Below, in pieces: positions 9,204 through 63,213 of a stretch of 64,000 nt of DNA. The notes below the pieces were generated by a model. It was not told where the DNA came from, did not search any database, and was given only the letters and a program-made list of their open reading frames with translations. A program made the translations under genes and the position numbers. How positions within the stretch are numbered: position 1 is the first letter of the stretch; every line of letters starts with the position of its first letter. Source of the DNA: Escherichia phage PNJ1902; the sequence record OK254197.1; one strand, given 5' to 3'.

Positions 9204-9260
9204 ATTTTATATTTCCTTAATTAAGAATTAAACAGAATAGTTCTTTCAAACTATGAGAAT

Positions 9261-9289
9261 ATTATATCAAGAATTATAGGATTAAGCAA
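9261..9289 (-). promoter_or_regulatory. sigma70 promoter
   Basis: RC: TTGCTT-17-TATAAT. Confidence 0.65.
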
Positions 9290-9309
9290 CTGAAATTTTT
9301 CGGTAACTG

Positions 9310-9564
9310 CTACACATCTAGCTCAACAATCTCCCAATCATCCGCTAGAGCTTCTTCTAGAGTAAGGTTTACTTGACGGATAAGTGGGGATTCCATACCG
9401 TTCTCCCACACATGTTCAGTCACTGTACCCTGCTCTACGTTAAATTCTAAAACCACTGTAAAGTGTTTATTATTTTCCCAGCAATCTCGCTGGAGATATT
9501 TTACGTCCCCAGCTTTCAGCAAATCTGTTAGCTTACTCACGGCGTTTTCCTTTTTCTTTATCAA
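9310..9564 (-). CDS. Hypothetical protein
   Basis: 84 aa ORF. Confidence 0.45.
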   Translation of the reverse strand: MIKKKENAVSKLTDLLKAGDVKYLQRDCWENNKHFTVVLEFNVEQGTVTEHVWENGMESPLIRQVNLTLEEALADDWEIVELDV

Positions 9565-10237
9565 ATTTCAAGGCAGCCTTAACAGCTTCATTAATTAATG
9601 AAATTACTTCTTCACGAGTCCACTTGTACCCTAGAGATTTTACGTCAACCCCTAATTTTTCCAGATGTTTAACAGAAGCCAGCTCGTAATTCATATAATG
9701 GACGTTCTGTTGTTTGCCTTCTGATAGAAGCCATACACGATAGCAACCAACAGGATTATCCATTGCTTTTTTGATTTCACCAATACACTGGTATCCAGGA
9801 ACCCAAACAAGCTCACCAACTGCAAATTCTTCTGCTACAGCATCATCAGGAATAATTGGAGGATTCAATGGATCTACAATATCGTTCAAACGAAGTAGAG
9901 CACCATATCGTTCCAGAACAGATTTAACCATTGCTACAGAGCGGTAATTACGATCGGCAATTTCTTCGAAAGAATCACCAGATAAATACTGCTCAATAAC
10001 GTTAGCTAACTCAATGCCTTCAATGAGTGTGCCACGTTTCTTTTTCTTCATTTCGGCAACTTGAATCTGGCGGTCTTGCCATTCTTCAATCATCCTTTCC
10101 ATAGTTGGATTGGATGATACGCCGAGCATTTCACATGCTGCTTTCTTAGTACCACCGTTCTCCAGATGCTCTATAACCTTTTTAAAGACTTCATCCGGGA
10201 TTTCATGGATATGTTTCTTTCTACGAGAACCAGCCAT
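9533..10237 (-). CDS. HTH-containing hypothetical protein
   Basis: 234 aa; N-terminal helix-turn-helix-like segment; first gene after PN25-type promoter. Confidence 0.55.
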   Translation of the reverse strand: MAGSRRKKHIHEIPDEVFKKVIEHLENGGTKKAACEMLGVSSNPTMERMIEEWQDRQIQVAEMKKKKRGTLIEGIELANVIEQYLSGDSFEEIADRNYRSVAMVKSVLERYGALLRLNDIVDPLNPPIIPDDAVAEEFAVGELVWVPGYQCIGEIKKAMDNPVGCYRVWLLSEGKQQNVHYMNYELASVKHLEKLGVDVKSLGYKWTREEVISLINEAVKAALKFDKEKGKRRE

Positions 10238-59996: not shown

Positions 59997-60721
59997 TGAG
60001 TATAAAAAAGAATTTAGCAGAGATTATTAAGTTAGCTAGAGCTTGTAATGGGAAATATGTTTCTCAGCTTAATGAACTAGAGGCACATGCAGTAGCATTT
60101 TGTGCAGAGTTTTATCCTGCATACCTTAATGCTAGTGGACAGCCCAAATATAATAAAGATGCAGGAGAAGTTACGTTAGCTCCTTCATATATTAGCTTGC
60201 GTCGTCTAATCCAAACTGTTGATCCTACTATTAAAGGATTCTCAGCAGATTCATTCCACGTCTTTGCAGATAAAGAACTCCCGTATTTTAAAGAAGGAAA
60301 TGCAAAGTCATGTTTAGAATGTTATCCAAATATTCTGATGATTCCTCAAAAGCAATGTAAATACGATCATCTTCCTAGACTTACAAAGAAAGTAGAACCA
60401 CCTTATTCTTCTCTATCTGAATTAAAGCTAGGAATTGTATCTACACTTGCGCAGGTTCATCTAAGTATAGTTGACGACTCAACAACATCTAATCCTATTC
60501 TAGATGCTGCACACTTTGAAATTTTACGTGATCCTGAACAAGCTAGAAAAGTTGCAAAGTCTGTTAAGTTTGATATATCAACAATTCTTGACACTAAACA
60601 AGAAACTAGACCTAGAGGAAGTGTAGATTATTCTGCACTAAATTCCGAGTCATCTTATTTAGCAACATTCCTTTTCATGGCGTCAAAAGGGGTTATTCTA
60701 AAGGTTAATAAAGATGGATGA
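59996..60721 (+). CDS. Hypothetical protein
   Basis: 241 aa ORF. Confidence 0.55.
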   Translation: MSIKKNLAEIIKLARACNGKYVSQLNELEAHAVAFCAEFYPAYLNASGQPKYNKDAGEVTLAPSYISLRRLIQTVDPTIKGFSADSFHVFADKELPYFKEGNAKSCLECYPNILMIPQKQCKYDHLPRLTKKVEPPYSSLSELKLGIVSTLAQVHLSIVDDSTTSNPILDAAHFEILRDPEQARKVAKSVKFDISTILDTKQETRPRGSVDYSALNSESSYLATFLFMASKGVILKVNKDG

Positions 60722-61442
60722 TTTACGTGCTGAAATTAATAAAAAGCTACGCGAGGAAGCCAGGAGGTTTCCTCTTAAAAACTTTTTGAAGTCAAATGGC
60801 TCTACTAATATAACGAAGATTAGGCAACTTCACCCTGACTTCCAACAAGAGGCCTTAAACCTTATCTTTATTAGGAAAGCTTTAAAAGTCCAGAAAGAAG
60901 AGTATGGGTATGAAAGAGTTAATTATAAGACAGCCAATCAGTTAGTAGAGATATGGTGCTATAAACACAAAGGATACTTTATGCAAACTGCTAGATCTCA
61001 CCTAGATGGGCACGGTTGTTTACAATGTGCTAGAGAAAGCAACCTCAATACACCTATCGAGAAACCGGAAGTAGAAGAAGATGTTCAGTTCCCCACATAT
61101 CTCTATATCTTCTCTAATAAAGATCAGTCTAGGAAGAAATTAAAGACAAAGATTGGGGTTTCTAGAGAGCCACATCAAAGGTTTAAGAATCTAGAGTATG
61201 ATAAATTACGTGTGCCGGGTTTTGAAGATATGGAAGTATTTGGTATCTACCAATATAAGAAAGGATCGAAAGAACTCGCTTACAAAATAGAACACCAAGC
61301 ACATAAATTTTTCGAGAATAAATTTGCTAATCATTATAAATTCGATGGAGCAAAAGAGATATTCAACATTAAAGCTGTAGAGGCAGAAGAATATCTATTA
61401 AGTCAAGGTTGCATAAAAATTTACCCAACTCCAAACTCATGA
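60714..61442 (+). CDS. Two-domain protein: N-terminal domain paralogous to 58247-58693 plus C-terminal T5orf172 (GIY-YIG-like) domain
   Basis: 242 aa; C-terminal YLYIFSN...KIGVSREP...RFKNL motif. Confidence 0.55.
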   Translation: MDDLRAEINKKLREEARRFPLKNFLKSNGSTNITKIRQLHPDFQQEALNLIFIRKALKVQKEEYGYERVNYKTANQLVEIWCYKHKGYFMQTARSHLDGHGCLQCARESNLNTPIEKPEVEEDVQFPTYLYIFSNKDQSRKKLKTKIGVSREPHQRFKNLEYDKLRVPGFEDMEVFGIYQYKKGSKELAYKIEHQAHKFFENKFANHYKFDGAKEIFNIKAVEAEEYLLSQGCIKIYPTPNS

Positions 61443-61469: not shown

Positions 61470-61499
61470 TTGACATTCGTGAGAATAATGTGTTATAAT
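61470..61499 (+). promoter_or_regulatory. Consensus sigma70 promoter firing into the repeat locus
   Basis: TTGACA-18-TATAAT, no ORF downstream. Confidence 0.55.
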
Positions 61500-61851: not shown

Positions 61852-62587
61852 TCGGATTTGCACATGTTCTAGGGCAGTTTTTCACCTACTATAAATATCC
61901 TAGGCCGGTTTTCCTATACAGGGCGGTTATGGGGAGGGCGGTTATTTCTAGACAACATTTTTTGAAAACACATTTCTGGATTTTACTGTCGGATTTGCAC
62001 ATTGTGTTTCTAGAAATTTATGGTCGGATTTGCACAATTGCCTAAGTTTTTAGGAACATATAATCTCCTGAAAATGGCAGCATTATTTCGGGCCGAAGGC
62101 CCATGTTTGCCTGAGTTTTTGGAGCCACAGAAATTTTCACTTGTCAAACTATTTTGCCCCATTTTGCTAATAAAATTTTACTTTATCTCCTCTAATCTCA
62201 AATTAACCTAAATCTTCTCAACTCTTCCCCAAAATCCCCGCAAATCGGGTGCCCCGCACCAAACATGCGCCCCTCCAGTTTCTCCTCTTATTTTCTCTCG
62301 CTCTCTCATCTTCTCCCCAAACCCACACAATCACACACCCTCCAATCGAAGTCACAAAAATCTTGTCGGATTCGCACATCTTAATCCTAGAAAAACCATG
62401 TCGGATTTGCACATACCCCACAGGATTCGAACGCAGTTCGTGATTGCTGGAGTTTTTGGGAAAATTCATTGTCGGATTTGCACACTATAAAAATTTTTCG
62501 GGTCGGATTTGCACACTACCAAAAATTGTCGGATTCGCACATACACGCCCGCACGTAACACCCGTGGAGCAATGTCGGATTTGCACA
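61852..62587 (+). repeat. Array of 9 direct repeats GTCGGATT(T/C)GCACA
   Basis: Copies at 61852, 61988, 62023, 62365, 62400, 62471, 62502, 62528, 62574, all same orientation. Confidence 0.8.
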
Positions 62588-62616
62588 AAAGCGCAGGGCA
62601 ATTGCCCTGCGCTAAA

Positions 62617-62830
62617 ATACGAATGATAATAAGAATCATTCTCATTTAAAAAGCGGAATGAGAATGATAATAATTCGCATTTAGAAAGTGAAATGATAAT
62701 CATTATCATTTAAAAAGCGGAATGATTCTCATTTAAGAAGTGAAACGATTCTCATTTAAGAAGTGAAACGATTCTCATTTAGAAAGTGAAATGCAAATGA
62801 TAATGATTCTCATTTAAGAATGGAAGTGAG
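62617..62830 (+). repeat. Tandem ~22-bp repeats (GATTCTCATTTAAGAAGTGAAAC-like)
   Basis: At least 8 imperfect copies; two identical adjacent units around 62727-62772. Confidence 0.7.
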
Positions 62831-62847
62831 AAACACTATTATTTAAG

Positions 62848-62929
62848 TTATCCACAGACTTATCAACAGCACGATTTGACTTGACAAAATTCTAGCCGTT
62901 TTGAAGCGTTATCAACAGACTTATCCACA
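62848..62929 (+). promoter_or_regulatory. Cluster of four DnaA-box-like 9-mers
   Basis: TTATCCACA at 62848 and 62921; TTATCAACA at 62860 and 62909; same orientation. Confidence 0.55.
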
Positions 62930-63150
62930 GCTTATCCTACTGTATAAATATACAGTATTCCTACGCAGCGAATAATTCTAATATACCGCTAAAACGCTCT
63001 CAAACGCATTCTAACGCGTTTAATTTTGTTGGGGATACTAAAACAAGGGCAAAATTGGAGGAGGCTTGAAAATTAGTTAGCCCGCTAACGATCACACAAG
63101 GCGACACGTAACACCCTAACCATTAGCAGGCTAACCATCGCGGGCGCGGT

Positions 63151-63173
63151 CAAATGAGAATGATTCTCATTTG
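63151..63173. repeat. Perfect 23-bp palindrome
   Basis: CAAATGAGAAT-G-ATTCTCATTTG. Confidence 0.7.
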
Positions 63174-63213
63174 AGAATTGGGGGCACTTCCAGATAGTTG
63201 CGCCCCGTGATTA

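Follow-up and report, generated by a model that had tools for sequence, protein, structure and literature searches.

An array of Fur-like palindromes in the terminal repeat of the T5-like phage PNJ1902 and its relatives

The non-coding DNA of the T5-like phages carries a tandem array of short palindromes that closely resemble the binding sites of the host ferric uptake regulator, Fur. In the window analysed here, that is, the whole stretch of 64,000 nucleotides from Escherichia phage PNJ1902 (OK254197.1), this array consists of eight units at 62617..62843 (no strand is assigned), as delimited by Tandem Repeats Finder, a repeat finder, a table of the units, and the alignment with T5. Judged by its motif and its conservation, the balance tips slightly in favour of an array maintained by selection for the binding of Fur. 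The repeats themselves are already published, and it is the Fur-box reading that appears to be new. No earlier report of the resemblance of this block to Fur sites was found in the searchable literature, which does not extend to the 1987, 2005, and 2015 papers on the region.

The window belongs to a T5-like phage, with its best matches, at ~95% identity, in the Salmonella phages SP01 and Spc35, and its orientation is opposite to the standard one of T5. The array is located in non-coding DNA between convergent genes, and starts ~495 bp inside the terminal repeat, the inner boundary of which lies at ~62122. The wider region is 82.6% identical to T5 positions 9238-9688, over 479 bp, and the array aligns unit for unit with T5 9468-9650, with one unit more in the window (a 29-bp indel). 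By this alignment, and by the curated T5 record, in which the repeats are named, the array is the T5-family block formed by copies 1-4 of direct repeat C and palindromes E-I, at T5 9468-9637, in Repeat Region 3. The block has the same neighbors in T5 as in the window. One flank carries the DnaA boxes of IRC' and IRD', and the opposite flank contains palindrome J, the 7.9% nick, and direct repeat D. The repeats and palindromes of the T5 Repeat Region 3 are reported to have been described by Heusterspreute in 1987 and by Wang in 2005.

The injection of T5 DNA pauses after 8% of the genome has entered the cell. Repeat Region 3, in the left terminal repeat, is the presumed signal for this stop, which requires no new protein synthesis (Davison, bioRxiv 10.1101/866236). 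A comparison of 25 phages describes the repeats, considers their functions “impossible to guess”, and proposes DnaA as the only host factor (bioRxiv 10.1101/866236), while work from 2026 still terms the signal a repeat-rich non-coding region.

The units of the array, counted from the anchor YATTTA, are 30 (the first, truncated, at 62617-62646), 35, 29, 23, 23, 23, 35, and 29 bp long, and successive anchors are spaced at 35, 29, 23, 23, 23, 35, and 29 bp, so that the lengths differ by multiples of 6. The original prediction had placed a tandem array here, with an end at 62830 and a period of ~22 bp. The array is present at that place, far from any chance level, and runs 13 bp further, while the period gives way to periods of 23, 29, and 35 bp, both in Tandem Repeats Finder and in the unit table. 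The repeat finder recovers seven in-register copies, at spacings of 23, 35, 29, 23, 23, and 35 bp. Two identical and adjacent copies had also been described, and these correspond to the 23-mer GATTCTCATTTAAGAAGTGAAAC, which is found in exact form at 62724 and 62747, with five further copies, at 3-6 mismatches, at 62637, 62672, 62701, 62770, and 62805. The 23-mer thus has seven copies in the array, and one apart from it, at 63162. For comparison, ~2.9 matches to GATTCTCATTTAAGAAGTGAAAC with up to 7 mismatches are expected in a shuffled sequence of 64 kb.

The symmetry of the array lies elsewhere than had been supposed. The 14-mer GAATGATTCTCATT, taken previously for a palindromic core, agrees with its own reverse complement, in register, at 2 of 14 positions, and the 13-mer AATGATTCTCATT, read directly from the sequence, is self-complementary at 10 of 13. 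The symmetric element is a 19-bp palindrome with a 9-1-9 arrangement, AATGAnAAT-n-ATTnTCATT, which is entire in the 29- and 35-bp units, and of which each of the three 23-bp units has just one half-site. The final unit extends into the inverted repeat with the DnaA boxes. Hypothetical proteins are annotated over the array region in several GenBank records, and this coding reading is unlikely because the units differ through indels of 23, 29, and 35 bp, including the 29-bp gap relative to T5, and because of the curated annotation of T5.

The resemblance to Fur sites was assessed with a matrix that an unseeded Gibbs sampler derived from 14 intergenic regions of E. coli K-12 under the control of Fur. 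The motif that emerges from these 14 regions is AATGATAATGATTATCAAA. The true E. coli sites have a leave-one-out median of 18.8 bits, and the matrix finds no site of at least 17 bits outside the Fur promoters in 74 kb of E. coli DNA. When the 64 kb are scanned, the best eight positions are seven sites in the array and the position 63153, at 17-28 bits, and in a scan with the consensus GATAATGATAATCATTATC, all six sites with at least 15 of 19 matches in the 64 kb fall inside the array. Shuffles of the array that preserve the dinucleotides contain 0.013 sites of at least 17 bits on average, against the 7 observed, and shuffles of the whole window contain 0.5, against 8, which shows that the composition of the array (72% A+T) does not explain the Fur-like sites.

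The details of the sites also follow those of the bacterial operators. The GAGAA-type half-site found in the E. coli fhuA, ryhB, fecI, and exbB sites (AATGAGAAT in ryhB), for example, is dominant in the phage sites too. The natural E. coli operators scanned contain 1-4 sites of at least 12 bits, often as doublets offset by 6 bp, with a maximum of 24.4 bits. An offset of 6 bp has been published as the mark of Fur clusters (PMC2189734), and is found in three doublets of the array, at 62622/62628, 62657/62663, and 62790/62796. A blastn search of the array against E. coli genomes returned no match, the sites being too short, and the complexity of the sequence too low, for this search to be informative.

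In the order of the window, the array opens with a double Fur-like site at 62622..62646, formed by 19-mers offset by 6 bp (22.1 bits at 62622 and 22.2 bits at 62628), followed by a second double site at 62657..62681 (17.6 bits at 62657 and 22.5 bits at 62663), and then by the top site of the window, AATGATAATCATTATCATT, at 62692..62710, with 28.4 bits, which includes TGATAATCATTATCA, the sole perfect 7-1-7 Fur core in the 64 kb. The three 23-bp units, two of them identical, occupy 62711..62779 with weak sites of 9.0, 5.1, and 5.1 bits, each unit having one intact half-site, ATTCTCATT, and a degenerate partner. Beyond these units, there is a further double site at 62790..62814 (17.1 bits at 62790 and 26.2 bits at 62796), and a moderate site, AGTGAGAAACACTATTATT, at 62825..62843 (13.8 bits), which lies on the margin of the homologue of the T5 inverted repeat IRC'. 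No strand is assigned to these sites.

Outside the array, an isolated and perfect 12-1-12 palindrome, TCAAATGAGAAT G ATTCTCATTTGA, is found at 63150..63174 (again with no strand), with a core of 23.9 bits at 63153-63171. This palindrome is additional relative to T5, and sits in an insertion near the place where T5 has palindrome C, which is annotated as a terminator. Counterparts are present in Spc35, Gostya9, and bobsandoy.

The surroundings of the array differ from those of a typical operator. The array does not overlap the promoter of any iron-regulated gene, given that the flanking genes converge and there is no downstream gene, and the promoter-like matches that overlap it are only weak (9-10 of 12). 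On the side away from the DnaA boxes, the array is flanked by a perfect GC-rich palindrome, AGCGCAGGGCAA/TTGCCCTGCGCT, at 62590..62613 on the minus strand, which is followed on that strand by TTTTGTG and looks like a terminator for the direction that is rightward in T5. This palindrome aligns with the region of the T5 palindrome J, and the single-stranded “major nick 1, 7.9%” of T5 maps to 62591-62598.

These elements raise the alternative that the sites are the Fur operator of a small RNA or short transcript of the minus strand (rightward in T5), which would start in the array, or just upstream from it, and end at the hairpin at 62590-62613. This appears very unlikely. A promoter-like sequence, TTGATA-17-AATAAT, is found on the minus strand at 62866-62838, with its -10 hexamer under the Fur-like site at 62825..62843, and the Rfam PrrF family (RF00444) aligns to 62584-62720 of the same strand below its threshold (38.2 bits, E = 3e-4), in a match that places the Fur box at the start of the model, with its Fur-box segment aligned to 62692-62716 at a high posterior probability, and the hairpin and U-run at the terminator. 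The small RNA genes of the PrrF/RyhB type do have a Fur box followed, ~100 nt on, by a hairpin and U-run, as the array does, but the score of 38.2 compares with a gathering threshold of 90, the internal stems are broken, and 12 related loci have no PrrF match at E <=1. The hairpin, in turn, is missing in My1 and Sugarland. The small RNA was rejected as a candidate, with the alignment being driven by the Fur box and terminator of the model itself and the match being absent from the 12 relatives. The folding of the RNA was also set aside as evidence of a transcript: the z scores (-7.1 and -4.7) are significant for either strand, and the two strands fold equally, with a diffuse ensemble, as would be expected of any array of palindromes. 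The first ~35 positions of RF00444 represent the prrF promoter and its Fur box, and wherever a strong Fur box precedes a terminator, this model can give sub-threshold matches, which are a possible source of false small-RNA calls.

Fur-like clusters are located beside DnaA boxes in T5, Spc35, Gostya9, an Epseptimavirus, the Pectobacterium phage My1, the Klebsiella phage Sugarland, and the Vibrio phage PG07. The motif is retained across the Demerecviridae, and the block is conserved more strongly than the neighboring genes. A survey anchored independently of Fur, on the neighboring direct repeat D, covered 39 T5-like loci from a collection of viral contigs. The conservation among relatives on which the original prediction depended is found in 34 of these 39 loci, which have a cluster at the equivalent place, with 3-7 sites of at least 17 bits within 300 bp, at a distance of 48-316 bp from the anchor. 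Of the five exceptions, two are truncated at the end of the locus. The Proteus phage VTCCBPA139 (Novosibvirus, L017 1400-1530) retains the DnaA-box pairs and has just two moderate sites, of ~14.5 bits, and could be an experimentally informative natural variant with a reduced array.

Over 24 distinct arrays, the sites are for the most part 6 bp apart, as in 64 cases, or 29 bp apart, as in 44, which makes a double site with a 10-bp spacer the basic strong unit. The spacers are alike only among the enterobacterial T5-like phages, and those of the Vibrio phage are GC-rich and bear no relation to the others, with the palindromes retained. As the spacers diverge while the palindromes persist, it is the palindrome, and not the 23-bp repeat, that is under selection. 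The earlier suggestion of a binding array for a dimeric protein is supported by these observations, and can be made specific, given that the cores match the motif of a dimeric repressor, Fur, as closely as the best E. coli operators, and are conserved across differing spacers. When palindromes are called without the Fur matrix, in 11 arrays, their consensus is again AATGATAATCATTATCATT, the same as that of the E. coli sites after symmetrisation (r = 0.89). Most common among the phage sites is AATGAGAATGATTCGCATT, an imperfect palindrome, the halves of which are both acceptable Fur half-sites and would mispair with one another. This favors the selection of the half-sites by a protein over base pairing, and disfavors a hairpin or cruciform as the functional form.

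The phage sites do depart from those of the host at position 6 of the half-site, where G is found in 45% of the phage sites, about as often as T, in comparison with 15% of the E. coli sites. This preference for G, which is absent from the host sites, could reflect a different binder with an overlapping specificity, and the palindromes may, though this is unlikely, bind a dimeric protein encoded by the phage itself, such as the pre-early A2 (with A1) or an early protein. Such a protein would act in the restart of transfer, in the joining of the terminal repeats, or in the organization of the repeat boundary, and the likeness to Fur would be incidental, or would reflect competition with Fur. Both A1 and A2 are needed for the second step of transfer, and are conserved in all T5-like phages, and the position of the array outside the normal context of an operator would suit a binder of this type. 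Against this, neither A2 nor A1 matches any Pfam DNA-binding family, and it would be a considerable coincidence for a phage protein to have a 9-1-9 specificity that matches that of Fur at 22-28 bits.

Clusters of Fur-like sites in unrelated phages also bear on the identity of the binder. Short blast matches led to unrelated myoviruses of ~145-150 kb, in which two Phapecoctavirus records contain 4-5 Fur-like sites in a 1.25-kb gap that is free of genes, one Certrevirus contains 4-5 sites in a gene-free gap, and one Seunavirus has a single perfect Fur-like palindrome (the loci are L021 1501-1606, L022 1480-1585, L024 1200-1314, and L023 1260-1278). The spacers of these clusters are unrelated to those of the T5-like phages. 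The myovirus gaps, which are ~1 kb long and rich in repeats, contain promoter-like sequences and, in some cases, A+T-rich tandem repeats, and a blast search with the Phapecoctavirus cluster finds matches in 355 phage records. The negative controls were 119 other viral loci (~1.07 Mb), picked solely for their paired DnaA boxes, and none of them has more than one site. Paired DnaA boxes were also considered as an anchor for T5-like loci, and proved not to be specific, with just 1 of 120 loci being T5-like.

The presence of clusters in three myovirus genera counts against a binder encoded by the phage, since the homologues of A2 are found only in T5-like genomes, and none from these groups, in a sample spread over 894 matches. 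A Fur carried by the phage was rejected as the binder, given that no Fur homologue is encoded in the T5-like or Phapecoctavirus records. The most parsimonious binder is a host factor that all of these hosts share.

The DnaA boxes flank the array on the side opposite the GC-rich palindrome and its nick, and form two pairs on the plus strand, TTATCCACA-gac-TTATCAACA at 62848..62868, which is homologous to the T5 IRC', and TTATCAACA-gac-TTATCCACA at 62909..62929, which is homologous to IRD'. In Repeat Region 2 of Spc35 and Gostya9 (L001 7782 and L020 3782), a Fur-like site of 17.9 bits, AATGATAGTGGTTCTCACT, is found beside four DnaA boxes, in the distant inverted partner of IRC', so that a Fur-like site plus a DnaA pair constitutes a repeated module. 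A terminator-like hairpin with a T-run is located between the DnaA boxes and the pre-early genes, at 63002-63021 on the plus strand.

The proximity of the array to four DnaA boxes recalls the iterons of the lambda ori and of plasmid origins, which are likewise tandem symmetric sites spaced at ~2-3 helical turns beside DnaA boxes. On this analogy, the array would be a replication origin of the iteron type, with a phage initiator bound to tandem palindromic repeats spaced at 23-35 bp, and the A+T-rich repeats that follow the cluster in the myoviruses would fit such a function. This is nevertheless the most improbable of the explanations considered here. The origins of T5 are mapped near the center of the genome, and its replication genes enter only with the second step (bioRxiv 10.1101/866236). 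Whereas iterons are recognized by a replicon-specific initiator encoded nearby, the repeats of the array match the motif of a host repressor rather than an idiosyncratic one, the flanking open reading frames match no initiator family, and there is no gene of an initiator type next to the array.

The inner boundary of the terminal repeat, at ~62122, is straddled by a second family of repeats, the nine copies of TCGGATTTGCACA(T) that represent the T5 direct repeat D, at 61852..62588 on the plus strand, which is separate from the Fur-like array. These nine TGTCGGATTTGCACA repeats contain ATTTGCACA, which matches the DnaA-box consensus TTWTNCACA at 8 of 9 positions, and may be weak DnaA sites or terminase sites. 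The array itself may be conceived as a signal for packaging or for the processing of the terminal repeat, which would define or duplicate the boundary through the terminase or a recombination system, but this is highly improbable. Host Fur might then be an accessory factor, comparable with IHF, which has this role at the lambda cos. The original suggestion of a recombination or packaging signal is neither strengthened nor dismissed by these findings. In favor of such a signal, the array is ~0.5 kb or less from the repeat boundary in T5, Spc35, and My1, and ~0.1 kb from it in Sugarland, and its right-hand copy would be near the physical end of the genome. Set against this is the fact that the boundary is straddled by the TGTCGGATTTGCACA repeats, and not by the array, and that the myovirus records are permuted differently, and their terminal structure cannot be read from them.

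Other elements are found on the far side of the direct repeats. A perfect sigma-70 promoter, TTGACA-18-TATAAT, preceded by a TG, is located at 61470-61499 on the plus strand, just outside the terminal repeat. This promoter follows the last plus-strand gene, and is directed towards the array across ~1.15 kb of non-coding repeats, and a perfect or 11/12 promoter is placed equivalently in Spc35, Sugarland, My1, and Gostya9 (L001 2972, L016 284, L015 207, and L020 337). The hairpin at 63002-63021 is placed to end transcription from this promoter before its antisense entry into the pre-early genes. The last gene before the non-coding region, at 60714-61442 on the plus strand, encodes a protein of 242 amino acids with a T5orf172/MUG113 domain (Pfam E = 4e-6), and its equivalent in Spc35 is of a different size.

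Returning to Fur as the binder, a mechanism can be proposed in which, on the entry of this stretch of DNA into the cell, iron-loaded Fur dimers would occupy the four strong blocks, with two dimers at each double site. From there, cooperative spreading may carry Fur across the three 23-bp units with weak sites, so that ~220 bp would be coated. With DnaA bound to the neighboring boxes, the result would be a large complex of host proteins and DNA at the boundary of the first-step transfer, which may be a cis-acting part of the stop or hold of injection, or an iron-status checkpoint superimposed on that stop. The pre-early proteins A1 and A2 would later overcome the Fur/DnaA complex.

A function specifically in the injection stop is favored by the fact that the stop requires no new proteins, by the location of the block at the 7.9% point, and by its conservation above that of the neighboring genes, although this part of the proposal is tentative, and considerably more doubtful than the binding of Fur. 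The broader suggestion, in which Fur and DnaA would be the missing trans-acting part of the T5 stop signal, or an iron-status checkpoint, and dense arrays of Fur boxes would be recurrent landing pads in the large non-coding control regions of unrelated virulent phages of the Enterobacterales and Vibrio, is more speculative still.

A number of points weigh against the Fur reading. The placement of the array is unlike that of the usual operators, with convergent flanking genes and only weak promoter-like overlaps, three of the eight units are just half-sites, and the Proteus phage has only two moderate sites. FhuA, the receptor of T5, is expressed most strongly when Fur is inactive, so that a strict dependence on iron-loaded Fur would be odd. 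In addition, a protein bound to DNA that is already in the cell would not obviously stop the entry of more.

If true, the presence of a family-wide array of Fur boxes in the most conspicuous repeat block of the stop region would name a candidate host factor for the injection stop, and would link a phage that uses Fur-regulated iron transporters as receptors to the iron sensor of its host. The clusters of the same motif in unrelated large myoviruses suggest, in turn, that virulent phages use Fur more widely than has been noticed. Should Fur prove not to bind, the precise element that is selected is still defined, as the 19-bp palindrome and not the 23-bp repeat, which would guide the search for a binder encoded by the phage. 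The Fur reading also makes the old question of the injection stop directly testable by simple experiments.

The proposal resembles the DnaA-box model of Davison, which likewise invokes pre-existing host DNA-binding proteins that load on conserved sites at the boundary of the first step, and the Fur-like array abuts the boxes concerned. That model differs in making no mention of Fur, and in assigning the block of direct repeat C and palindromes to no protein. The closest known counterparts of the sites themselves are the enterobacterial Fur operators, such as those of fepB-entC, fhuF, fiu, and fhuA, and the extended aerobactin operator of iucA, which have the same 19-bp 9-1-9 motif, and sites that overlap at an offset of 6 bp, as in the array (PMC2189734). 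The E. coli operators and the array share the half-sites AATGATAAT and AATGAGAAT, and the phage AATGCGAAT resembles the E. coli AATGCAAAT. In contrast with these operators, in which the hexamers form a continuous run, the blocks of the array are split by spacers of 4, 10, or 16 bp, and no promoter of a downstream gene lies beneath them. The array also contains eight sites over ~220 bp, where the natural Fur operators scanned have 1-4 sites. As read from its sequence, then, the array is a putative Fur site cluster of unusual size, found in an unusual setting outside a promoter, and carried by a virulent phage.
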